A stretch of DNA of 64,000 nt, from the NCBI GenBank assembly GCA_014075255.1, contig CP046178.1, positions 1,089,616-1,153,615 on the forward strand, in the 5' to 3' direction. The stretch is from Gammaproteobacteria bacterium. Lineage in GTDB: Bacteria > Pseudomonadota > Gammaproteobacteria > UBA4575. The position numbers and the translations under genes are program-made. Numbering within the stretch: position 1 is the stretch's first letter; each line of letters begins with the position of its first letter. Below the pieces are notes generated by a model, which worked only from the letters and a program-made list of their open reading frames with translations, made no database searches and was not told the DNA's origin. Below are positions 4,962-61,003 of the stretch, piece after piece.

Positions 4962-5946
4962 CTCTCAACTCTGGTGTGTTTAAACTATTATTTATGTAAG
5001 TGTATTAAATATACGTGATTTATTTATTGAAGTGATCTCGTAATAGTTTGTATTTACAACTATTAACAATGTATTCATATTTATTTTTAGTTGTTATTAA
5101 GCAAAATACAACACTTTACGTGTGTTTAACATGCATTTATTTACTATTTTTCAAGTGTATTCATAAGTAAATGATTCTTGGAGAATTTAAAGAATCCATC
5201 CATTGTCCACACGGTAAGACAAGCCAATCTAGAATTTCGAATCGTTAAAAATTTTATTTAACCACCTAACAACCAAGTTAATGGAACAGTAACGAAGCTA
5301 TGGTTAGTGATAACAGACATATATGCGGCTAATACAATTATTAAATAATACATGCTTAGCTACCCCTCTATTTATATCGAACCTTTACATAAAACCCTCA
5401 GTAACCTTTATAAATGCTATTTGCAGATAATTATAATAACCAATACGAGCTATTAAACTTTAAAAGTGCGTAATGAATTTATAGATGCAAGCTAAGTGCG
5501 CTTATCTTCTAAAGATTGAAATCAGATATCTTTAAGACCGAATTCAAACCATATTGATTCGCAGATACCGATGAGACAAAACACCTTTTGGCACTTCTTC
5601 AGCAAACGCCTATTGAGATATATGAATACCTATTTCAAATTGTATATTTGAAATCTACCGCTATATCACTCTAAATATTCTAAAAACAATAAAAACATTT
5701 AAGAATAGTCACTTAGCGGATTTGCTTAACTAACTGCTATAAATGTAATGCTTTTTTCTGCAGAAAAGTTAAGCAACGAAGTTAAATTTCTTATGAAAAT
5801 ATAGAATTTTTCGTTACATTTTTTTCGCTAATTCATGCACACTTGCAAGACATATCACAGTTCATCATATTATTCCTTTTTAGAATGCTCATGAACTCTG
5901 ATAGGGAAGCACTATCTAATAAGAGTAAAACGAAACCGCTATTCCC

Positions 5947-11210: not shown

Positions 11211-12581
11211 ATGCCCAATATGGATAGCTCTCAAATAGGAATGGATCTCGAAGAACGGCAAATATATTCCGTCCTGCAACTCAATCGAGAAGTTAAACAA
11301 CTATTACAACAAAACTTTCCATTACTATGGGTAGAAGGCGAGCTCTCTAATGTGGCGCGTCCCGCTTCAGGACATATTTATTTCTCGCTAAAAGATCAGC
11401 AAGCACAAGTTCGTTGCGCGATGTTTCGCAAGGCAAATTTAGGCTTAGCCTTTCAACCTGAAAATGGCATGCAAGTATTAGTACGGGCACGAGTCGGTAT
11501 ATACGAGCCTCGAGGTGAATACCAACTCACCATCGAACATATGGAAGAAGCGGGTGTTGGTATTCTGCAACGCAGATATGAGGCATTAAAACAAAAACTC
11601 AATCAAGAAGGCCTGTTCGACCCAGACAATAAACAACCACTACCCTCTTATCCACATGCTGTAAGCATCGTAACCTCTGCAACTGGAGCCGCGATACGTG
11701 ACATTCTTAGCGTGCTACATCGTCGCTATCCCCTGCTTACTATTCGCATCTATGCCGTGCCGGTTCAAGGAAATAAATCGGCCGCTGCTATCGTAGACGC
11801 CATTCAAGAGATCAATAAACGTAAAGACGCTGATGTGGTGATTGTTTCTCGAGGAGGTGGCTCGATAGAAGATCTTTGGTCATTCAATGAAGAAGAAGTT
11901 GCACGTGCAATCTATTCCTCCAAAATCCCAATCGTCGCAGGCGTCGGCCACGAAGTAGATTTTACTATTGCCGATTTTGTTGCCGATGTGCGTGCCGCCA
12001 CACCCACTGCAGCAGCAGAACTTATTACTCCACATCAAGATGAACTGCTAGAAACATTTATACAATATGAAAATACTCTGCTTTGCTTGTTGCGCGATTC
12101 GATAAGCAATTTTCATCAAGCTGTTGACTGGATGACACAACGCTTAGAATCTTTACATCCCAAACAAATTATCCAACGCAAACAAGAATTCTTAATCGAA
12201 TTACAGCGACGCGCGCATAGTGCCGTTAAACTTAAGTTGTCAGACCGAGTAAATCTGCTAAGTAGATTATCACTCAGGTTTGAAAGCCATTCTCCCCATG
12301 CACGTGTAAGAGAAGCTAAAATTAAATTAATCGATCTCCACAAACAGATGCACCGAAGCATTCAGACCCATCTGCAACAAAAGCAACAAGATATACATGC
12401 TTTAGCTAGAACTCTGGATGCAGTCAGTCCATTGGGTACTTTGAATCGTGGCTATGCCATTGCCAGCCACCGGGCAAGTGGACAAATTTTGCACAATAGT
12501 AATCAGGTATCAAAAGATGACGAAATATCTATCCAAGTGGCCAAGGGGCATATTTTCGCTAAGGTTAAAGGTAAGCAATAA
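11211..12581 (+). CDS. xseA: exodeoxyribonuclease VII large subunit
   Basis: OB-fold N-terminus (LLWVEGELSNVARPASGHIYFSLKD) and ExoVII catalytic core (VSRGGGSIEDLWSFNEE). 456 aa. Confidence 0.9.
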   Translation: MPNMDSSQIGMDLEERQIYSVLQLNREVKQLLQQNFPLLWVEGELSNVARPASGHIYFSLKDQQAQVRCAMFRKANLGLAFQPENGMQVLVRARVGIYEPRGEYQLTIEHMEEAGVGILQRRYEALKQKLNQEGLFDPDNKQPLPSYPHAVSIVTSATGAAIRDILSVLHRRYPLLTIRIYAVPVQGNKSAAAIVDAIQEINKRKDADVVIVSRGGGSIEDLWSFNEEEVARAIYSSKIPIVAGVGHEVDFTIADFVADVRAATPTAAAELITPHQDELLETFIQYENTLLCLLRDSISNFHQAVDWMTQRLESLHPKQIIQRKQEFLIELQRRAHSAVKLKLSDRVNLLSRLSLRFESHSPHARVREAKIKLIDLHKQMHRSIQTHLQQKQQDIHALARTLDAVSPLGTLNRGYAIASHRASGQILHNSNQVSKDDEISIQVAKGHIFAKVKGKQ

Positions 12582-12692
12582 GCCATTCTTGACACATTTC
12601 AAGAAAATTTCAGCTTTATACCTATAACCATTGCTTGCCAGAAGCCTTCTTATCTGGCATAAAAGCGGGCTTCATTTTCACAAGAGTCTTCC

Positions 12693-13481
12693 ATGCCAGC
12701 TAAAAAAGTCAAAACCAAGAAAAAAGCCGCTCCTAAAAAGAAGGCTGCAGTAAAAAAAGCCGCACCTAAGAAAAAAGCAGCGGTCAAAAGAAAAGCTGCG
12801 CCTAAGAAAAAGGCTGCGGTTAAGAAAAAAGCTGCGCCCAAGAAAAAGGCTGCAGTCAAGAAAAAAGCCGCGCCTAAGAAAAAAACTGCAGCAAAGAAAG
12901 CTGCGCCTAAAAAGAAGGCTGCGGTTAAGAAAAAAGCTGCGCCTAAAGCACCACCAGCAGAAAAGAAACCTTCCAAAGCTGAGCTGAAAGAACAGAAGGC
13001 GCAAGCAGAAAGAGAAAAGAAAAAACAGAAAAGAATTGAATTGTTAAATAAACGTTCCCCAGTTGAATTGCCGGTTGAAGGTATCACGCCCTACACCCTA
13101 CATCGTGGTGAAAGCTACATGAGTGACGCGCAGCTAGAACATTTCCGCAATATATTATTGTGTTGGAAACAAGAATTAATTGATGAAGTTAAACGCACGG
13201 TCGATCAAATGAAAAATGACGCTAGTCAATTTGCTGATCCGGCCGATCGTGCTACGCAAGAAGAAGAATTTAGTTTAGAGCTCAGAACACGTGACCGTGA
13301 AAGTAAATTGATTAGAAAAATCAACCAGACGCTGTCAACTATCGATTCTGAAGACTATGGTTATTGCGAATCGTGTGGCATTGAAATAGGCATTAAACGT
13401 TTGGAAGCACGGCCAACTGCCACCTTATGCATTGACTGTAAGACCTTGCAAGAAATCAAGGAAAAACAAATATTTACCTGA
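12693..13481 (+). CDS. dksA: RNA polymerase-binding transcription factor DksA with N-terminal histone H1-like Lys/Ala/Pro repeat extension
   Basis: C-terminal 150 aa matches DksA: coiled-coil YMSDAQLEHFRNILLCWKQEL and the C4 zinc finger CESCGIEIGIKRLEARPTATLCIDC. The first 110 aa or so are KKAAPKKKAAV repeats. It lies upstream of gluQ as in E. coli. Confidence 0.8.
   Translation: MPAKKVKTKKKAAPKKKAAVKKAAPKKKAAVKRKAAPKKKAAVKKKAAPKKKAAVKKKAAPKKKTAAKKAAPKKKAAVKKKAAPKAPPAEKKPSKAELKEQKAQAEREKKKQKRIELLNKRSPVELPVEGITPYTLHRGESYMSDAQLEHFRNILLCWKQELIDEVKRTVDQMKNDASQFADPADRATQEEEFSLELRTRDRESKLIRKINQTLSTIDSEDYGYCESCGIEIGIKRLEARPTATLCIDCKTLQEIKEKQIFT
12720..12960 (+). repeat. tandem imperfect 33-36 bp coding repeats (about 7 units) encoding AAPKKKAAVKKK
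   Basis: Repetition of aaraaagc(t/c)gcgcctaagaaaaaggctgcggt is visible in the DNA. The antisense frames give spurious F/A/L-rich ORFs. Confidence 0.8.
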
Positions 13482-13566
13482 TATTTCTCAGAGAAAATTA
13501 AGTTAATTTTTTTGGGATGAGAGCCCTGAATAGTTAACCTAAACGTCTTACTAGTATAGTTAATTT

Positions 13567-14490
13567 GTGAAACAACAAAACTATATAGGTCGATTCGCCC
13601 CCTCTCCTTCCGGGCCATTACATTACGGTTCGTTAGTAGCAGCTACAGCAAGTTATTTGCAAGCAAAGTACAATAATGGAAAGTGGTTAGTTCGCATAGA
13701 AGATATCGACCCACCACGTGAAGTTGCCGGCGCTGCAAACGAAATACTTAAAACCCTTGAACACTTTCAGTTTGAGTGGGATCAAACACCACTCTATCAA
13801 TCGACTCGTCGTGAGCAATACCGCTCTGCAGTTAATAGTTTAATTCAACAAAACCAAGCTTATGCTTGTTCATGCTCGCGAAAAGACTTAGCCAATAATA
13901 TTCAGAAAAGTGAATTAGGAAAACGCTATCCAGGAACCTGTGCAAACAAACAGTTAAATACTCGTGAAACATCTCTGAATTTAAGACTGCGCACTAAAAA
14001 TGAAAATATTAATTTTCAGGACATCACTTATGGAAAATTAAGACACAATCTTTTGAAAGAGATTGGTGACATTATTATTTATCGTAAATTGGACCTGCCA
14101 AGCTATGCTTTAGCAGTAACAATAGATGATGCCTACCAAGGCATTACCGAAGTAGTGCGCGGCTATGATTTACTCGCCTTTACCCCAATACAAATATATC
14201 TTTGCCAACTGTTACAGCTACCTATACCGAAGTTTCTACATATCCCTATTATCCTCAATCAACAGGGACAAAAATTAAGCAAACAAACCGGCGCAGATGC
14301 TATCAGCAAGCAAAATTGTGGGAGCGTGTTAGTTCAGGCGCTGAAAGATTTAGGTCAACCTGTCCCAGAAAATCTTGAAAAAGAGTCCTCTGGGAATGAC
14401 GAGCTAGGACAAATATGGAATTGGGCAATTAAACACTGGAATGTAGATAACATTCCCAAAATCAAACAAGTTTATCCATCCCAAAACTAA
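13567..14490 (+). CDS. gluQ: glutamyl-Q tRNA(Asp) synthetase
   Basis: GRFAPSPSGPLHYGSLVAA class I HIGH-like motif and truncated GluRS catalytic domain. 307 aa. Conserved dksA-gluQ synteny. Confidence 0.85.
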   Translation: MKQQNYIGRFAPSPSGPLHYGSLVAATASYLQAKYNNGKWLVRIEDIDPPREVAGAANEILKTLEHFQFEWDQTPLYQSTRREQYRSAVNSLIQQNQAYACSCSRKDLANNIQKSELGKRYPGTCANKQLNTRETSLNLRLRTKNENINFQDITYGKLRHNLLKEIGDIIIYRKLDLPSYALAVTIDDAYQGITEVVRGYDLLAFTPIQIYLCQLLQLPIPKFLHIPIILNQQGQKLSKQTGADAISKQNCGSVLVQALKDLGQPVPENLEKESSGNDELGQIWNWAIKHWNVDNIPKIKQVYPSQN

Positions 14491-14491
14491 A

Positions 14492-14514
14492 AACGGCCGT
14501 GATGTACGGCCGTT
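14492..14514. terminator. GC-rich hairpin, likely bidirectional rho-independent terminator
   Basis: aacggccgt-gatgt-acggccgtt stem-loop immediately after the gluQ stop. It is followed by a T-rich tract and lies downstream of convergent genes. Confidence 0.5.
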
Positions 14515-14545
14515 ATTAGTTAATTATTAAAGACGAAAACGAGGC

Positions 14546-14773
14546 TTATTCATCGCCTCCACTTTCTTTGTTTTTAACCCAATCCCATGGCTCTTCTTTA
14601 CCCACCGCAAAAAAGATCCAGAAGTTGCCAATGATCATAATAATGAACATCAAAGCGGTAAGGATCGCCCAAACTGGCTCGCGGTTATGTTCGCCAATAT
14701 TGAGCCAATTCATAATTCCAAGGAACGCGACGGTCCATAACGCCATAACGCCTAATGCTTGTAAAGTACGCAT
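14546..14773 (-). CDS. small two-TM membrane protein, hypothetical
   Basis: 75 aa with two hydrophobic helices (LGVMALWTVAFLGIM, VWAILTALMFIIMIIGNFWIFFAV). Same strand as, and immediately downstream of, the reductase gene. I chose it over the overlapping plus-strand ORF. Confidence 0.35.
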   Translation of the reverse strand: MRTLQALGVMALWTVAFLGIMNWLNIGEHNREPVWAILTALMFIIMIIGNFWIFFAVGKEEPWDWVKNKESGGDE

Positions 14774-14807: not shown

Positions 14808-15887
14808 TTAACGCCCGCCAGGCATTGAACTCGCATCTAAAAACTTATCAAAGTATATATTCTCTTTATTCATACCTTGGTCAACCATGACATCAATTGC
14901 TGCATCGATCATCGGTGGAGGACCACATAAATAGCCCTGAGCTTCGTTCAAAGACAATTTACCAGTATCTACGTAAGCTTCCTTTAAATAGGTGGTCACA
15001 AACCCTGTTGCGCCCTGCCAGCCGCTTCCTTCTGGCTCTTCACTTAATACAGGAACGAACTCAAAGGAATAGTCTTTATTCCATTTTTTACCAATTTCTG
15101 CTAATTCGTCCATGCAGTATAAATCTTGCTGCGCACGTGCGCCAAATAGATATAAACAGTTTCGTTTCACTTGTTCCGCAGCAGAGCTTTCTAAAATGGC
15201 CTTAATAGCGCTCATACCACTGCCGCCTGCTACACACACCATCGTAGAATCTTCATCACGTCGAAAGAACTGTCCATAGGGACCTGTTACTTTAACAGTT
15301 TCGCCAACACGCTCTTCTGCGAATAGCCATTCAGTAAATTTACCGTTTGGCACTAAACGCACATAAAATGTAAATTCACCTGGATTCTCTTGCTTAGGGG
15401 CTTTTGCGTAAGAATAAGAACGTGGATCATCTAAAGCGCTAATCGCGACTTCAGAATACTGTCCAGCCATTCCTGAATGCTCGACTTTGCCTTCACACTT
15501 AACGACTAGCTCTTTAATGTCGTGCGTTAGGTTACGAGTACTTATGATTTGACCTTCGTATGAATTTAACGCTATTGCAGGCGCATCACTGAGCTCAACT
15601 TCAATTGCAACATCGGTTTTAAGTCGCGTTTGGCAAGCAAGAATCTTACCGCTCTTGAGTTGATCTTGATCTAGTACATAAGAAAAATCTGTTAAAGCTT
15701 TGATTTTTCCATTTTTAAGCGTGCACTGACAGGTGCTGCAACTACCCACACGACAATCGTGCGGCCACGGGACACCTGCTTCTAAAGCAGCTTTTAACAA
15801 GTTGTCACCGGCCTTTACGGTAATGGTATGCTCGCCACCATTAACGGTTGCTTGCCAGTCTTTATTACCGCCAAATAATCCAAACAT
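14808..15887 (-). CDS. 2Fe-2S ferredoxin / FAD-NAD(P)H oxidoreductase fusion (XylA/alkane-hydroxylase-reductase-like electron transfer component)
   Basis: N-terminal plant-type ferredoxin with Cys pattern CRVGSCSTCQC...C. FNR-like FAD motif RSYSYAKAP and NAD motif MVCVAGGSGMSAIKAIL. 359 aa. Confidence 0.75.
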   Translation of the reverse strand: MFGLFGGNKDWQATVNGGEHTITVKAGDNLLKAALEAGVPWPHDCRVGSCSTCQCTLKNGKIKALTDFSYVLDQDQLKSGKILACQTRLKTDVAIEVELSDAPAIALNSYEGQIISTRNLTHDIKELVVKCEGKVEHSGMAGQYSEVAISALDDPRSYSYAKAPKQENPGEFTFYVRLVPNGKFTEWLFAEERVGETVKVTGPYGQFFRRDEDSTMVCVAGGSGMSAIKAILESSAAEQVKRNCLYLFGARAQQDLYCMDELAEIGKKWNKDYSFEFVPVLSEEPEGSGWQGATGFVTTYLKEAYVDTGKLSLNEAQGYLCGPPPMIDAAIDVMVDQGMNKENIYFDKFLDASSMPGGR

Positions 15888-15954
15888 GATATCAAATACT
15901 CACTGGCGTCCTTTCCAGTGTTGAGAACGCTTATTGTATGTTTAAGAGAGACGC

Positions 15955-16647
15955 TTAAACGTTAATAGAAATGTCTCGCAAGGTTCCAGAACTTACATCG
16001 CTTGCAGTTGGCAAGCAGCTATAAGGCTCAAGCTTTTCCTTACTCGTTGAAGGATGCGATTTCACTTTGCCGTACCAAGCATTCACACCCGCACGTGAAC
16101 TAATTAAATCACCCGCTCCACTGTGCTCAAGTAAGTTGCAACATGCTGCCCAGTGAATATCGGCTAAAGTAAAGTCTCCACAGATAAAGTCACCTTTCTT
16201 AGGTGGAGTCTTAAGTTGATTTTCTAATCCATCAAACAAAGTGGCTAAGCCGTTTTTATCTAGGTTATCACCCATCATTGCCTGAACTTTCTCAGAAGCA
16301 ACACCTGCCCACTGATACATCACCGCACGATGCACACCGTTACGTGGAACTAAAGATGGACCAAAACCTTTATCATCAAGATATGACATTACGGCAGTAG
16401 TGCCATAAACAATAAAGTCAATATCTTGCAATACGGGCCCAATTCCATAAGGAGATTTTGCAAGAAAATCACTGTCATCCATTCCATTAATGAGCACGGC
16501 TTCAACATCAACGCCTTTCTCACCTGCTGTTTGCATACACTTCCCAGTGTCTGGACAGCTTGGGTGTCCACTCAATATCATTTTTGTTCTTAACTGATCT
16601 CCGATCATATCTCCCCCTAACAGGCAATCTTTATTAGGATAGTACAA
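15955..16647 (-). CDS. glutathione S-transferase family protein
   Basis: Thioredoxin-like N-domain (KMILSGHPSCPD, YGIGPVL) and helical GST C-domain. The true start is probably the internal Met near 16581. Confidence 0.65.
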   Translation of the reverse strand: MYYPNKDCLLGGDMIGDQLRTKMILSGHPSCPDTGKCMQTAGEKGVDVEAVLINGMDDSDFLAKSPYGIGPVLQDIDFIVYGTTAVMSYLDDKGFGPSLVPRNGVHRAVMYQWAGVASEKVQAMMGDNLDKNGLATLFDGLENQLKTPPKKGDFICGDFTLADIHWAACCNLLEHSGAGDLISSRAGVNAWYGKVKSHPSTSKEKLEPYSCLPTASDVSSGTLRDISINV

Positions 16648-16751
16648 ATGTTAAATAGTGCTCTTTAGAGCACTACTCAACCATTAATTTTCAAATAAAC
16701 TTTAGTGTTTATAGGCGCTAAAGTAAAACGTTATAGCTGATTCTAATCAGC

Positions 16752-16931
16752 TTAACCTTCAATTTTCAAAGCGCCAGAAGGACACTTAGAAACTGTTTCA
16801 CGAATTTCTGCTTCAGGTGCCGCATCTGTATCAATTACAAATTGACCATCTTCTACTTTAAATACACTTGGTGAGCCTTTAACGCACTCGCCAGCATGGC
16901 TACAAGTATTCGCATCATAAGTTACTTTCAT
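16752..16931 (-). CDS. divergent 4Fe-4S mono-cluster protein (YjdI-like)
   Basis: My own translation of the minus strand gives MKVTYDANTCSHAGECVKGSPSVFKVEDGQFVIDTDAAPEAEIRETVSKCPSGALKIEG (59 aa). The C.H.G.C ... CPSGAL pattern matches E. coli YjdI. It falls below the 60 aa ORF-track cutoff. Confidence 0.55.
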   Translation of the reverse strand: MKVTYDANTCSHAGECVKGSPSVFKVEDGQFVIDTDAAPEAEIRETVSKCPSGALKIEG

Positions 16932-17105
16932 TTCTGAACTCCTCGTTTTTCTCTATTATATTGTATAGCTATAGTCTTATTTAGTATGACTATAGTTTGC
17001 CGTTTTTTTTTATACTTTAATAGCTTTTTAGCTAAAAATGCCCTTAACCTGGTTAATAAATTATGTTCAAAATATGAGCAAGGATAAGGGTTTATCTTTT
17101 TATAC

Positions 17106-18260
17106 TTAAACGTATCCAGCCTGTTTATTCATCTGTGCAGCGATCTTAAGCTCACCTTCAGACGCCATCTCGTCATCCCACTTCCCCAGCTGTTTCTTCA
17201 TGTAGGCATGAAACACAGGTGGCAATAAGCCTAATGCAAAGAGAGTGAAGTAGCCGCGCCCGCAGTTCGGAGCCCCCACTTCGTCGAGTTCCCAAAAGTG
17301 GGTCTCGCCTCGATCGTGGTGATCCGCTTGGCGACCAATTTCGATAAAGAACCAGCTGGTAAATGCGGTACTGTTGTCCCAGCTATGACGGTAGTCAATC
17401 GGTTGACCTTTTTCGCGTATCAGGCCGTAGTGCTCAAGGTAGTTCAGTACTTCAAGTTCAAAGTTGGAGATGAGCCATACACCGGCTAAACAAAGCATGC
17501 CGGTCCAGCCGCCTACGAACCAAAATAATAGAACGGTCGGTAGGGCCATGAAGTAGCCTCGGATCCAGCGGTTTTGCCAGGAGAGGAAGTTCACGCCGAT
17601 TCTTTCGAGGCGTTGCTTCTCCATCATGAAGAGGAATTTGCTTTGCCCAAATCCTGATAAAGGATAGTGGGTGTACATGCTGCGTCCACGTGGAGCAGTC
17701 GCCGGGTCGTCTTGGTGACCGAGTTCTAGGTGGTGGTTGTAGACGTGGGCGTAGCAAAAGTGGGCTTTACCACTTAAGGCCATCATCCAGCGCGCGATCA
17801 CAAAGCTGAAGCCTTTGGTGTGGGCCAGTTCGTGTCCGTAAATAATACCAATCCCCGCAAAGATGCCGGAGGACATCACTGCACCGATGAGTTGGCGTCC
17901 GGTGATGCCGTCTTGAACGGTGAGACCCAGAATACTGGTTTCGCCAATCGGCACGTTGCCCATGTATTGCCAGATGCGCCAAGCAAGGGCGAGTTGTATC
18001 AAGGCAAAGACGGCCAGCATGCCGTACATGGTGCCATTGAGTAACGGGACGATGCCCATGGTGTCGCCTTCGTCATCAAAGCCTGCACCCGGAGTTTGGG
18101 CCGTGGTTAAGGTGTCGACAATGATGCCTACGCCTAATAAAACTACGCCGGTCCACACCCATGGACCCCCCGCAATCACGCCAAATAAACTGGCGAATAT
18201 TAATAATGGTGCGAGAAAGTACCGCGCGTTGATTAATAACTTCTTCATGTTCGTCTCCAC
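17106..18260 (-). CDS. alkB: AlkB/XylM-family integral-membrane non-heme di-iron hydroxylase (alkane 1-monooxygenase-like)
   Basis: His boxes GHELAHTKG and AHVYNHH. The HYG motif NYLEHYGL and RQADHHDRG match AlkB signatures HE[LM]xHK, EHxxGHH, NYxEHYG[LM] and LQRHSDHH. Multiple TM helices. GC about 55-58%, against roughly 38% genome-wide. Confidence 0.8.
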   Translation of the reverse strand: METNMKKLLINARYFLAPLLIFASLFGVIAGGPWVWTGVVLLGVGIIVDTLTTAQTPGAGFDDEGDTMGIVPLLNGTMYGMLAVFALIQLALAWRIWQYMGNVPIGETSILGLTVQDGITGRQLIGAVMSSGIFAGIGIIYGHELAHTKGFSFVIARWMMALSGKAHFCYAHVYNHHLELGHQDDPATAPRGRSMYTHYPLSGFGQSKFLFMMEKQRLERIGVNFLSWQNRWIRGYFMALPTVLLFWFVGGWTGMLCLAGVWLISNFELEVLNYLEHYGLIREKGQPIDYRHSWDNSTAFTSWFFIEIGRQADHHDRGETHFWELDEVGAPNCGRGYFTLFALGLLPPVFHAYMKKQLGKWDDEMASEGELKIAAQMNKQAGYV

Positions 18261-18591
18261 TTCATCACAAGCTTATGCCTGTGCAGAAGAAAATTAAGAT
18301 TATAAAAATAGATATTTGAAATCTGTTTTCGAGCATGAGGCACTTAATTTTATAATTATCGGCCAGCACACTGATATTTATAGGAATTATAGCACTCGTT
18401 GAATGTATTTTTATAGCCTAGCCTTCACAATTTTAAGGTCAAAATATATGCTTCAAAAACTAAACACAGCATGAACAAGCTGGCTAATGAACCATCAGCT
18501 AACTCATTGATGGAATACGCAATTAGCCAATTTTAGAGCGAAAATAGAGAATACTAATGTTAGAAATTACATTAATAGCCATACATCTAGC

Positions 18592-19251: not shown

Positions 19252-19929
19252 CTATTTTGTACTACTTAATCCATCTTCAATAGGTAGATTTTCAAGTTTC
19301 CATTCTGGAAATCCGTCTTCTAACCTACGAGCCTTGTAACCTTTAGAACGCAATTGTTCAACAGCTTCAAATGCCATGATACAAAATGGTCCTCGGCAAT
19401 ACGCAACAACTTCTTTTTTCTGTGGTAAGCGCTTTAACTCATCTTTTAATTCGGATAGTTGAATGTTAATAGCATGTGGAAGATGACCTGATTCAAATTC
19501 TTGTTCGGGACGCACATCTAGAACCGTGATTGTCCCTTTTTGTGCACGCTTCAATAACTCATCTCTTGAAATGGGTTCTAAATCATCTTTGGAAGACAAA
19601 TAATCTTTTACCAAAATTTGAATTTCAGCGATATTTTCTTCGGCAATCTTCCGCATGAGCGCTAATAACGCCACAACTGAATAATCACTTAAGCGATAAA
19701 ATGACTTTTGACCCTCCGCTCTGGATTTGACTAAACCAGACCTTCGCAGTCCCTGTAAATGTTGAGAGGTATTGGCGACGCTCAGCCCAGACGCTTTTGC
19801 TAGCCCATCTACAGTGCATTCACCTTGCGCCAGGAATTCCAATAGCGCTAAGCGATTACCGTTACTAAGCGATTTGCCAACCTGGGCAAATTGAGCAAAC
19901 AATTCTTTCTTGAATGTACTAGAAGACAT
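19252..19929 (-). CDS. ArsR-family transcriptional regulator fused to a C-terminal rhodanese domain
   Basis: ArsR winged HTH (ECTVDGLAKASGLSVANTSQHLQGLRRSGLV). C-terminal rhodanese with active-site Cys loop (VVAYCRGPFC). The start is taken at the internal Met of MSSSTFKK. Divergent from the downstream plus-strand genes. Confidence 0.65.
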   Translation of the reverse strand: MSSSTFKKELFAQFAQVGKSLSNGNRLALLEFLAQGECTVDGLAKASGLSVANTSQHLQGLRRSGLVKSRAEGQKSFYRLSDYSVVALLALMRKIAEENIAEIQILVKDYLSSKDDLEPISRDELLKRAQKGTITVLDVRPEQEFESGHLPHAINIQLSELKDELKRLPQKKEVVAYCRGPFCIMAFEAVEQLRSKGYKARRLEDGFPEWKLENLPIEDGLSSTK

Positions 19930-20009
19930 AATAATATAATATTCAATTGATCTATTGAATATTATATTGTACTTTAGGTTTAGATTCAATTATTTAAGAG
20001 AAATACGCA

Positions 20010-20876
20010 GTGCCTATAGAGGAATTTATATCTAGTTATGAGTTGAGCATTCGCTTTGGGTTCTTCTTTGCAGTGCTAGCAATAATGGCAGTGTGGGAAA
20101 TTCTTGCTCCTAGAAGGACTCTTAATGTTTCAAAATCTACACGTTGGATGAATAACCTTGGAATTGCAGCGCTTAACACAATTATTTTACGACTAATATT
20201 TCCAGCCGCCGCAATAGGTATGGCGGCATTAGCAGAAACACAGGGCTGGGGCGTATTAAATTATATACAGTCTCCGATCTGGCTTACCTTAATTGTGTCC
20301 GTAATTATTATGGATGCTGTAATTTATTTCCAACACGTGTTAGTACACGCTGTCCCTGTGCTTTGGCGATTACATCGAGTTCACCATGCTGACCTCGATT
20401 TCGATGTAACCACTGGATCACGCTTCCATCCGATTGAAATTATATTATCCCTGCTTATTAAGTTTGCCACGATTATTGTGCTTGGCCCGCCAATTATTGC
20501 GGTTGTGATTTTTGAAGTGCTGCTAAATACCACCAGCATGTTCAACCACGCAAATGTACGTATACCAAAAAGTGTAGATCGACTACTGCGCTGGTTTATC
20601 GTGACGCCAGATATGCACCGAGTTCACCATTCTGTTGAAGATGATGAAACGAATAGTAATTTCGGATTTAACTTACCGTGGTGGGACCGATTATTTGGTA
20701 CCTATCGCAATCAACCACGTGCGGGACATAAACTGATGACTATTGGCATTAATACATTCCGCGATCGTCAACATTGCACCTTGTTACCTGGCATGTTGGC
20801 GATGCCATTTATTGGCAAGATCACAAATTACACAATTAATAGCCGTCAATGGGACGTTCCTAATAAACAAAACTAA
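20010..20876 (+). CDS. sterol desaturase / fatty acid hydroxylase superfamily membrane protein
   Basis: Histidine boxes HRVHHAD and HRVHHSVEDD with four TM helices. 288 aa. Confidence 0.7.
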   Translation: MPIEEFISSYELSIRFGFFFAVLAIMAVWEILAPRRTLNVSKSTRWMNNLGIAALNTIILRLIFPAAAIGMAALAETQGWGVLNYIQSPIWLTLIVSVIIMDAVIYFQHVLVHAVPVLWRLHRVHHADLDFDVTTGSRFHPIEIILSLLIKFATIIVLGPPIIAVVIFEVLLNTTSMFNHANVRIPKSVDRLLRWFIVTPDMHRVHHSVEDDETNSNFGFNLPWWDRLFGTYRNQPRAGHKLMTIGINTFRDRQHCTLLPGMLAMPFIGKITNYTINSRQWDVPNKQN

Positions 20877-20893
20877 AAATCAGGAGAAAAGTC

Positions 20894-21256
20894 ATGTCAA
20901 AGATATTCATGAAGTCCTCATGGGGAAGTGACAACCCAACAAATGCTGAAATGGTATTTGGGCACGGCAATGCGCTGGCAGAAGCTGGAAATGATGTTCG
21001 GATATTCCAACTCTTTGAAGCGGTGACATTGGCCCGCCCAGTTGTACGTGAAAATTTGATCCCAGTAGGATGGCCTTCGATTGCAAAACAGTGGGATGAA
21101 AGCGTAAAACTAGGCATCCAAATTGAATGTTGTGGTGCGTGTTCTAGGGCCCGAGGCGTTACCAATGAAGAAATCGCAAAAGCTGGTGCACTTATAGGCA
21201 CCCCGGAATCCTTCGTAGAAGATGTAGAGTGGTCAGAGAAGATAATTACTGAATAA
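20894..21256 (+). CDS. DsrE/DsrF-like sulfur-relay family protein
   Basis: 120 aa. The small alpha/beta DsrE-like fold is suggested by GHGNALAEAGNDVRIF and a conserved Cys cluster IECCGACSRARG. Separated from the previous gene by 17 nt. Confidence 0.45.
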   Translation: MSKIFMKSSWGSDNPTNAEMVFGHGNALAEAGNDVRIFQLFEAVTLARPVVRENLIPVGWPSIAKQWDESVKLGIQIECCGACSRARGVTNEEIAKAGALIGTPESFVEDVEWSEKIITE

Positions 21257-60682: not shown

Positions 60683-61003
60683 TTATAAATCCAACCAAAG
60701 TTTTTTAGGTTGCCTCATGCCTGCAATTTTACAACCTTGTTGCCCGTATCCATATGGAAATAGCGCATAAACATACTTACGGGTTGCTTTTTCCGGACCA
60801 AGTTCTGCTTTTAGTTGTTTTAATATTTTCCGCAGCTCTGGAACCGAGTGATTCTCGTAATAATATTCTCGAATAAGGCGGATTAGATTCCAACGATCTT
60901 CAGTGAGTTCTAGCTCTTCCTTTACAGCAATCTTTTTTGCTATTTCTTCAGTCCAATCTTCTGGGTCTAATAAAAATCCGTCCTCATCAGTTTGGACATC
61001 CAT
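60683..61003 (-). CDS. TusE/DsrC-family sulfur-relay-like protein (lacks C-terminal Cys)
   Basis: Aligns with E. coli TusE (RKYVYALFPYG..CKIAGMRQP versus RYLYRLFPKG..TKIAGLPKP). It ends LWLDL instead of the conserved terminal Cys arm. 106 aa. Confidence 0.5.
   Translation of the reverse strand: MDVQTDEDGFLLDPEDWTEEIAKKIAVKEELELTEDRWNLIRLIREYYYENHSVPELRKILKQLKAELGPEKATRKYVYALFPYGYGQQGCKIAGMRQPKKLWLDL

Follow-up and report, generated by a model that had tools for sequence, protein, structure and literature searches.

The window analysed here, a 64,000-nucleotide (nt) stretch of contig CP046178.1 (positions 1,089,616 to 1,153,615; Gammaproteobacteria bacterium, assembly GCA_014075255.1), contains on its minus strand, between 14.5 and 18.4 kb, five co-directional genes, which encode an AlkB-like integral-membrane di-iron hydroxylase (alkB), a single-cluster ferredoxin (fer4), a GST-fold protein, a XylA-like reductase and a two-helix membrane protein (tm75). 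These genes probably constitute a native, vertically inherited operon for a ferredoxin-dependent AlkB-fold hydroxylase of alkyl or alkane C-H bonds, in which alkB is shaped by codon selection and, in related genomes, is present as twin copies homogenised by gene conversion.

Operon layout and component proteins

The alkB gene (17106-18248, minus strand) encodes a protein of 380 aa, as in all homologues, and starts with an ATG at 18248 preceded by a GGAG ribosome-binding site; the GTG at 18260 is only the mechanical start of the open reading frame (ORF). On the same strand follow fer4 (16752-16931, 59 aa), the gene of the GST-fold protein (15955-16608, 217 aa, with its ATG at 16608), the reductase gene (14808-15887, 359 aa) and tm75 (14546-14773, 75 aa), which is the last gene of the module. 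A preliminary description of this region had placed four same-strand ORFs at 14808-18260. Strand and gene positions hold, but the extent was corrected at the starts of alkB and of the GST gene, and tm75 had not been listed. The genes are separate, with gaps of 67 to 174 nt, and are not joined into a single polypeptide of the fused ferr_ferrR_AlkB type.

Upstream of alkB, at 18386-18397 on the minus strand and about 130 nt before its start codon, lies an extended -10 element, GAGTGCTATAAT, which occurs once in the window against 0.02 occurrences expected by chance and is a putative promoter. An element of the TGCTATAAT type aligns at the same site in the window and in all 14 syntenic loci compared; nine of these 15 loci show exactly TGCTATAAT and the rest carry close variants, such as TGCTATACT and TGTTATAAT. 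Downstream of tm75, an intrinsic terminator (14492-14514, minus strand), with a 9-bp G+C-rich stem followed by a T-run, closes the unit. It folds with -20.6 kcal/mol (z = -4.6), and none of 200 shuffled sequences folds equally well. Since the promoter element is conserved and a strong terminator follows tm75, the five genes look like one operon and would be transcribed together. A hairpin located just 3' of alkB was rejected as an attenuator or terminator, being no better than its shuffles (z = -1.1), and an Rfam scan of the region gave nothing meaningful.

The hydroxylase belongs to the Pfam family FA_desaturase (PF00487, E 6e-27), and in phmmer searches it matches the FtAlkB structures 8sbb (E 3e-26) and 8f6t (E 1e-24). 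Its AlphaFold2 (AF2) model, built from an 82-sequence alignment, has a pLDDT of 95.3 and a pTM of 0.92 and is predicted to show the AlkB fold, with six bundled transmembrane helices and a cytoplasmic cap; in a Foldseek search of the PDB it matches only the two FtAlkB structures (TM 0.78, probability 1.00). A model from a shallow alignment (15 sequences, all at least 70% identical) reached a pLDDT of 63, with active-site regions below 50, and was discarded. The assignment to the AlkB/XylM type of membrane di-iron hydroxylases, made in the preliminary description, is therefore borne out by family, structure matches and fold. Its statement that all AlkB histidine boxes are present together with NYLEHYGL is right for box 1 (HELAH), box 2 (HVYNHH) and NYLEHYGL, which have aligned counterparts in AlkB, in XylM and in AlkB proteins of the ferredoxin class and are invariant in the family. 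Box 3 reads RQADHH, with a Gln (Q307) instead of the first of its three His. This Gln is invariant in 15 of 15 family members, while at least 90% of the 82 aligned sequences, and nearly all outgroup representatives with a locatable box 3, have His at this position (RHSDHH in AlkB, NHINHH in XylM). The hydroxylase thus keeps eight of the nine canonical iron-ligand His, the ninth being Gln; H317 is also invariant in the family.

More than 1,200 homologues of the hydroxylase were found, of which the 120 best are 70-93% identical to it, and family members are 70-97% identical. A library of 1.84 billion representatives contains one full-length representative of the family (71%), and the next relatives show only 31-38% identity. 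The automatic names given to family members are 'alkane 1-monooxygenase' or 'fatty acid desaturase', and no description of the family was found in the literature on sponge-symbiont alkane monooxygenases and related lineages.

The reductase contains an N-terminal plant-type [2Fe-2S] ferredoxin domain followed by FAD-binding and NAD-binding domains (Pfam Fer2, FAD_binding_6 and NAD_binding_1), the architecture of XylA, BenC and MmoC. It is 40% identical to XylA of plasmid pWW0, with the Cys ligands and the RxYS, GGxG and CGPP motifs conserved, and 39-42% identical to XylA and to the reductases paired or fused with the nearest annotated AlkB-like proteins, as expected from the earlier reading as a fused plant-type-ferredoxin/FNR reductase of XylA architecture. 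Its best NCBIfam matches are BenC, AntC and MmoC, each below the cut-off. An unrelated reductase of the NqrF type, which had been named as a finding that would overturn this reading, is ruled out (158 bits against a cut-off of 295). A XylA-like reductase adjoining the hydroxylase is the arrangement of XylMA-type systems. The absence of an accompanying rubredoxin, also noticed earlier, stands: a six-frame scan of the 64-kb window for the rubredoxin motif (CxxCG ... CPxCG) gave a single match, in the zinc finger of DnaJ. The classical set of AlkB, rubredoxin and rubredoxin reductase is therefore not found within the window, where the neighbours of the hydroxylase are a Fer4_19 ferredoxin and a Fer2-FNR reductase.

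The Fe-S protein and the GST assigned to this cluster in the preliminary description were both recovered. The ferredoxin encoded by fer4 matches Fer4_19 (PF06902, E 8e-17). In an alignment of 11 orthologues, it shows invariant C10, H12, C16 and C50-P51, and an Ala at the position of the usual middle Cys; this ligand pattern suggests a [3Fe-4S] or a His-ligated [4Fe-4S] cluster. Its non-synonymous divergence (dN) is among the lowest of the neighbourhood. The GST-fold protein gives weak Pfam matches to GST_N and GST_C and shows, in 11 orthologues, an invariant Cys-x5-Cys (SCPNTGKC) where GSTs have their catalytic residue. Motifs of this type are typical of thiol-transferase or reductase GSTs and not of conjugating ones. 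Its family contains 345 proteins, and each locus inspected also had fer4 and the reductase gene. The product of tm75 matches no Pfam family above cut-off. In 21 of 25 module-bearing loci its gene lies directly after that of the reductase (28-85% identity); among the exceptions, it was not detected in L096 and only partially matched in L002 (L-numbers label related loci), and two contigs end before it. The GST-fold protein and tm75 are conserved accessory parts of the module.

Conservation of the locus, base composition and twin copies

A species-level genome collection contains 206 loci with a gene for a relative of the hydroxylase. The best 80 of these 206 loci all belong to uncultured Gammaproteobacteria, many of them from sponge or marine metagenomes, and they include 'Candidatus Porisulfidus', Oxydemutatoraceae and single-amplified genomes labelled Thiothrix. 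The window shows the gene order pnp-msrB-alkB-fer4-GST-reductase-tm-gluQ-dksA-xseA (context A), which is the same in at least 12 related genomes, with flank identities of 41-87%. The position of the locus, after rpsO-pnp-msrB and before dksA-xseA-guaB, is kept in relatives whose PNPase is only 63-87% identical. Synonymous divergence (pS) between the window and its relatives is near saturation, at about 0.51-0.96 for alkB and 0.39-0.92 for its neighbours. The dN of alkB is lower than that of pnp in every comparison; the dN of fer4 is lower than that of pnp in most comparisons and slightly higher in four, with L025-L029. Because the gene order is kept in at least 12 genomes with saturated synonymous sites, the operon is not an island but an ancient core locus, passed on vertically in a clade of uncultured Gammaproteobacteria that are marine or sponge-associated.

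The module is also kept intact in other surroundings: all five genes, from alkB to tm75, are found in distant GC-rich genomes with other flanks (L077-L079). Two distant genomes, with a PNPase identity of 63-64%, show fer4, the GST gene and the reductase gene at the pnp/msrB locus, and alkB is missing from that locus; for one of them, a full-length alkB homologue was found on a contig of the same size. At L096, the position of alkB between pnp-msrB and fer4 is occupied by a fragment with a transposase-type helix-turn-helix (5278-5577), which suggests that the operon copy of alkB was lost or replaced there.

The preliminary description had taken the whole block to be elevated in G+C content (GC) and, on that ground, to be horizontally acquired. 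The four-gene block indeed shows a GC of 0.446 against 0.404 for windows of the same length (z = 2.2), an excess over the host that an island would explain, and AlkB and XylM genes are elsewhere often plasmid-borne. However, the excess comes entirely from alkB. This gene has a GC of 0.523 (z = 4.5), above every other window of its length, and a GC at third codon positions (GC3) of 0.621, while the mean of the 56 ORFs in the window is 0.405 for GC and 0.32 (sd 0.05) for GC3. The remaining 2.3 kb of the block have a GC of 0.408 (z = 0.2 against windows of the same length), with values of 0.431 for the reductase gene, 0.424 for the GST gene and 0.394 for fer4, and a GC3 of only 0.347, 0.338 and 0.183, respectively. 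No tRNA gene is located at the edges of the block, and no integrase or transposase gene is found among the ORFs which flank it. Neither of the features of a genomic island, block-wide atypical composition or broken synteny with mobility borders, is thus seen. Three of the four genes have background composition, synteny with the housekeeping flanks is kept down to 63% PNPase identity, and alkB is as near to synonymous saturation as the flanks. Acquisition of the whole block as an island is therefore extremely improbable, and the claim had to be abandoned.

The anomaly of alkB is confined to third positions, GC being ordinary at first and second ones, and it concerns one base. C at third positions (C3) reaches 0.40 against a background of 0.135, and G (G3) 0.21 against 0.185. 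Codons for Asp, His, Asn, Tyr, Thr, Ile, Gly and Arg are all shifted to C-ending forms, so that C-ending codons make up 0.68 of NNY codons in alkB and 0.25 (sd 0.07) in the other genes of the window; GAA, CAA and TTA are used at host frequencies. The only ribosomal-protein gene of the window, rpsO, leans the same way (0.41 C-ending NNY). In low-GC relatives, alkB shows a GC3 of 0.55-0.69 and the flanks 0.28-0.34. The C-ending pattern is common to most low-GC relatives examined (the group of L001-L010, L021 and L035), and AT-rich planktonic relatives show a milder form of it. In the clade L016-L022, the high GC3 of alkB is due to G-ending codons for Glu, Gln and Lys (0.93-0.95) and C-ending ones are not preferred, and in another clade alkB is raised in both G-ending and C-ending codons. 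In most genomes the direction of the bias in alkB is that of rpsO, with L010 as an exception and with small samples. The alkB codon pattern would be best explained by lineage-specific codon selection on a very highly expressed, slowly evolving gene: an excess confined to C-ending codons, with GAA, CAA and TTA at host level, fits codon selection better than a GC-rich donor, from which more G-ending codons would be expected too, and a GC3 excess common to low-GC relatives with near-saturated synonymous sites points to an old, maintained state.

Many relatives contain a second copy of alkB, in a conserved context (context B) other than the operon locus. Here, genes encoding TatD, a rhodanese-domain protein, FabA and a MerR-family regulator are all divergent from alkB, and downstream of it lie a gene for a 232-236-aa protein of no named family and then DinB. 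The regulator, of about 320 aa, shows a degenerate B12-binding-like domain and the CarH/LitR architecture, and lies upstream of position 7001 in L003, L008, L011, L015, L017, L018 and others. In 13 of 13 genomes compared, the two alkB copies are 99.4-100% identical in DNA, over a stretch that begins about 10 nt ahead of the start codon and ends 3-100 nt past the stop, and their flanks are unrelated, while alkB orthologues of different genomes are only 64-86% identical in DNA. Near-identity within genomes next to diverged orthologues between them indicates that the twin copies evolve in concert, by gene conversion, in these relatives. Upstream, the two copies are unlike: the extended -10 element precedes alkB in context A, and TGTACA-type repeats lie beside the regulator gene in context B. 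The TGCTATAAT-type element is absent upstream of the copies in the MerR context. The TGTACA-type repeats together with a MerR-type regulator hint that one copy may be under light or stress control. A third, unconverted paralogue, with about 73% DNA identity, adjoins YdjM and LpxR genes, and in the AT-rich planktonic clade no context but this was seen.

Several short-read metagenome-assembled contigs (L001, L004, L006 and L079) begin 0-12 nt from the start of alkB, as expected if assemblies break at a duplicated, identical coding sequence. In L084 and L085, of the Porisulfidus type, an 807-aa protein is encoded about 3 kb downstream of alkB (12155-14661); it contains an AlkB-like FA_desaturase domain (28% identical) and a GlnE-like domain, and its gene adjoins those of a CMAS-type methyltransferase and a YcaO protein.

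The conversion between twin copies bears on two other explanations of the alkB composition. GC-biased gene conversion between two dispersed copies could have raised the third-position GC. In its favour are the homogenised copies in all 13 genomes, the largest GC3 excess in two-copy genomes and the lower GC3 of the unconverted third paralogue in the same genomes (in one, 0.39 for L055 against 0.60 for L026/L027; in another, 0.52 for L041 against 0.62 for L030/L033). Nevertheless, a strand-symmetric bias should lift both G3 and C3, and alkB in the window lifts only C3; the two-fold Glu and Gln codons, ending in A or G, are unchanged; and AT-rich lineages with a single copy show the same C-ending preference, which makes this mechanism quite unlikely as the source of the pattern. 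Replacement of the hydroxylase coding sequence alone, by recombination with the allele of a GC-richer relative whose GC excess was never ameliorated, would explain why the anomaly coincides so sharply with the coding sequence. Conversion tracts of the same extent occur between paralogues in relatives, and related lineages at 47-52% GC carry alkB genes with a GC3 of 0.6-0.7. But these GC-richer relatives show the opposite pattern, with G-ending codons (R-bias 0.93-0.95) and no C-ending preference, and their pS to the window is 0.93-0.96. The alkB of the window, in turn, keeps the host usage of GAA, CAA and TTA and a normal composition at first and second positions, and the same C-ending pattern in most low-GC relatives, at near-saturated synonymous sites, speaks for an old and maintained state. 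Allele replacement is accordingly very unlikely. Under codon selection, which remains the preferred explanation, the case illustrates that a sharp GC3 spike in one gene can reflect selection on codons instead of horizontal transfer.

A parallel is offered by duplicated genes of abundant proteins that evolve in concert, such as tufA/tufB and the multi-copy amoCAB/pmoCAB. As in those, dispersed copies are near-identical within a genome, orthologues are diverged and the product is very conserved. Unlike them, the tract in the present family covers just one coding sequence, beginning some 10 nt ahead of its ATG, and the two copies have unrelated promoters and neighbours.

Placement among known hydroxylase systems

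In a neighbour-joining tree on pairwise distances (60 bootstraps), all 60 replicates recover the hydroxylase family as monophyletic, and its stem is long. The comparison with AlkB and XylM that had been proposed thus gave a separate clade, but its deep sister group is weakly supported: the XylM clade is sister to the family in 40 of 60 bootstraps, which may be due to long-branch attraction, and pairwise distances favour instead the ferredoxin class. Both candidate neighbour groups use XylA-type reductases.

The ferredoxin/ferredoxin-reductase class of AlkB shares with the window the AlkB fold and an electron donor of the plant-type [2Fe-2S]-FNR type, in place of rubredoxin and rubredoxin reductase. 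This class, including its unfused version on the plasmid of Hydrocarboniclastica marina, gives the best pairwise scores (33-35% identity, E 1e-44 to 1e-46), and its reductases are 41-42% identical to that of the window. The nearest annotated protein is the Hydrocarboniclastica plasmid AlkB, which is encoded beside a separate Fer2-FNR reductase (34.5%, E 5e-46). It is followed by a 752-aa reductase-AlkB fusion of Polaromonas CJ2 (33%, E 9e-44), whose gene sits in an alkane-type operon with those of a GMC oxidoreductase, an acyl-CoA ligase and an aldehyde dehydrogenase. The fused ferr_ferrR_AlkB class is known from Nie et al. (2014) and Williams et al. (2021), both covered by the review PMC8918992, according to which expression of this fused class gave active enzyme. 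The system of the window differs from this class in several respects: its parts are unfused; it contains in addition a Fer4_19 ferredoxin, a Cys-type GST-fold protein and tm75; box 3 is RQADHH and not RHSHHH; genes for an AraC regulator, an alcohol dehydrogenase, an aldehyde dehydrogenase and a CoA-ligase do not accompany it; and its family forms a separate clade on a long stem.

With XylM/XylA of the TOL plasmid pWW0, the window shares the pairing of a membrane di-iron hydroxylase gene with that of a Fer2-FNR reductase, the latter at 40% identity. XylM itself is only about 30% identical (E ~1e-24) and keeps the His of box 3 (NHINHH), and the benzyl-alcohol and benzaldehyde dehydrogenase genes of the xyl context are not adjacent in the window, so that the hydroxylase is not assigned as a XylM orthologue. 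The AlkB-AlkG-AlkT system, represented by FtAlkB (8F6T and 8SBB), shares the fold (TM 0.78), boxes 1 and 2 and NYLEHYGL; rubredoxin-type AlkB proteins are 23-30% identical, and the present hydroxylase differs from them in having eight of the nine His ligands and no rubredoxin or rubredoxin reductase gene in the window.

Predicted function and neighbouring genes

The operon would encode a multicomponent membrane monooxygenase. NAD(P)H would reduce the FAD of the XylA-like reductase, from which electrons would pass to the fused [2Fe-2S] centre of the same protein and then, probably via the 59-aa ferredoxin, which would take the place of the rubredoxin of classical AlkB systems, to the hydroxylase. 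There, the di-iron centre of the AlkB fold would activate O2 and hydroxylate an alkyl C-H bond. The most probable substrate is an aliphatic hydrocarbon or an alkyl chain.

The main alternative for the substrate is an endogenous membrane-lipid acyl chain, hydroxylated or desaturated for instance in a response to light or oxidative stress, in place of external hydrocarbons. 'Fatty acid desaturase' is among the automatic names of the family, the operon comes after msrB and downstream alkane-catabolic genes are lacking; in the other contexts alkB adjoins the CarH/LitR-like MerR regulator, with FabA nearby, or LpxR and YdjM. But NYLEHYGL, the fold and all nearest relatives are of the AlkB/XylM type and not of the acyl-lipid desaturase type, the nearest annotated relatives are found in hydrocarbon-catabolic operons, and a dedicated NAD(P)H reductase with a ferredoxin is typical of catabolic oxygenases. 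Hydroxylation of endogenous lipids is therefore considered unlikely.

Several observations weigh against the operon as a codon-selected, ferredoxin-dependent alkyl or alkane hydroxylase system. Gln occupies one of the nine canonical His ligand positions, and the chemistry may differ from that of AlkB. The genes for DnaK, PNPase and IF2 in the window do not show the C-ending bias, which makes the codon-selection signal unusually gene-specific, and the high expression of alkB is one that we infer from codon bias, copy number and conservation. The role proposed for the fer4 product follows from adjacency and co-conservation, and XylA-type reductases can reduce a hydroxylase directly. Finally, none of the three conserved contexts contains a gene for an alcohol dehydrogenase, an aldehyde dehydrogenase or an acyl-CoA ligase, which weakens the alkane-catabolic reading. 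As for expression, two alkB copies are reported to be very highly expressed in the marine gammaproteobacterial order GCA-002705445 (PMC13488336); these copies may or may not belong to the present hydroxylase family, so that this is only a lead.

A bolder possibility, to which we give limited credence, is that an uncultured order of sulfur-oxidising marine and sponge-symbiont Gammaproteobacteria has in this hydroxylase a core membrane monooxygenase of very high abundance, with a status like that of pMMO or AMO and a substrate new to the class. Features which would fit are the identical twin copies, a purifying selection stronger than that on PNPase, the extreme codon bias, the His-to-Gln ligand and a dedicated relay of ferredoxin, Cys-type GST-fold protein and small membrane protein. 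Candidate substrates would be methylated sulfur compounds, short-chain hydrocarbons and alkanes of cyanobacterial or host origin, the last as a main source of energy. If this enzyme were a main catabolic one of abundant sponge symbionts and their planktonic relatives, it would reveal what these bacteria live on, and biochemists would gain an AlkB di-iron site in which nature has replaced a His by Gln and which receives its electrons from a ferredoxin. Marine surveys routinely count alkB-annotated genes as alkane degradation potential, and the family falls under such an annotation, but it differs from every characterised AlkB in a metal ligand, in its electron partners, in the lack of downstream catabolic genes and in its evolutionary behaviour.

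Upstream of the operon, the interval between msrB and pnp contains three genes in the window: one encoding an ArsR-rhodanese fusion (19252-19989, minus strand), one encoding an OlsE-like protein of the FA_hydroxylase/sterol-desaturase family (20010-20876, plus strand) and one encoding a DsrE-like protein (20894-21256, plus strand). As pnp and msrB are adjacent in every syntenic relative, this stretch (19252-21256) represents an insertion, of about 2.2 kb, that is specific to the lineage of the window, and in codon composition it does not stand out. A 106-aa ORF at 60683-61003 resembles, by eye only, a sulfur-relay protein of the DsrC/TusE type, and, taken with the rhodanese gene and the DsrE-like one, it is in keeping with a sulfur-oxidising lifestyle. 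Downstream of the operon, the DksA homologue (12693-13481) shows an N-terminal extension of about 110 aa with Lys/Ala/Pro-rich repeats (AAPKKKAAVKK...), like the tail of histone H1. Long forms of DksA are also found in relatives, where Pfam reports DksA_N.

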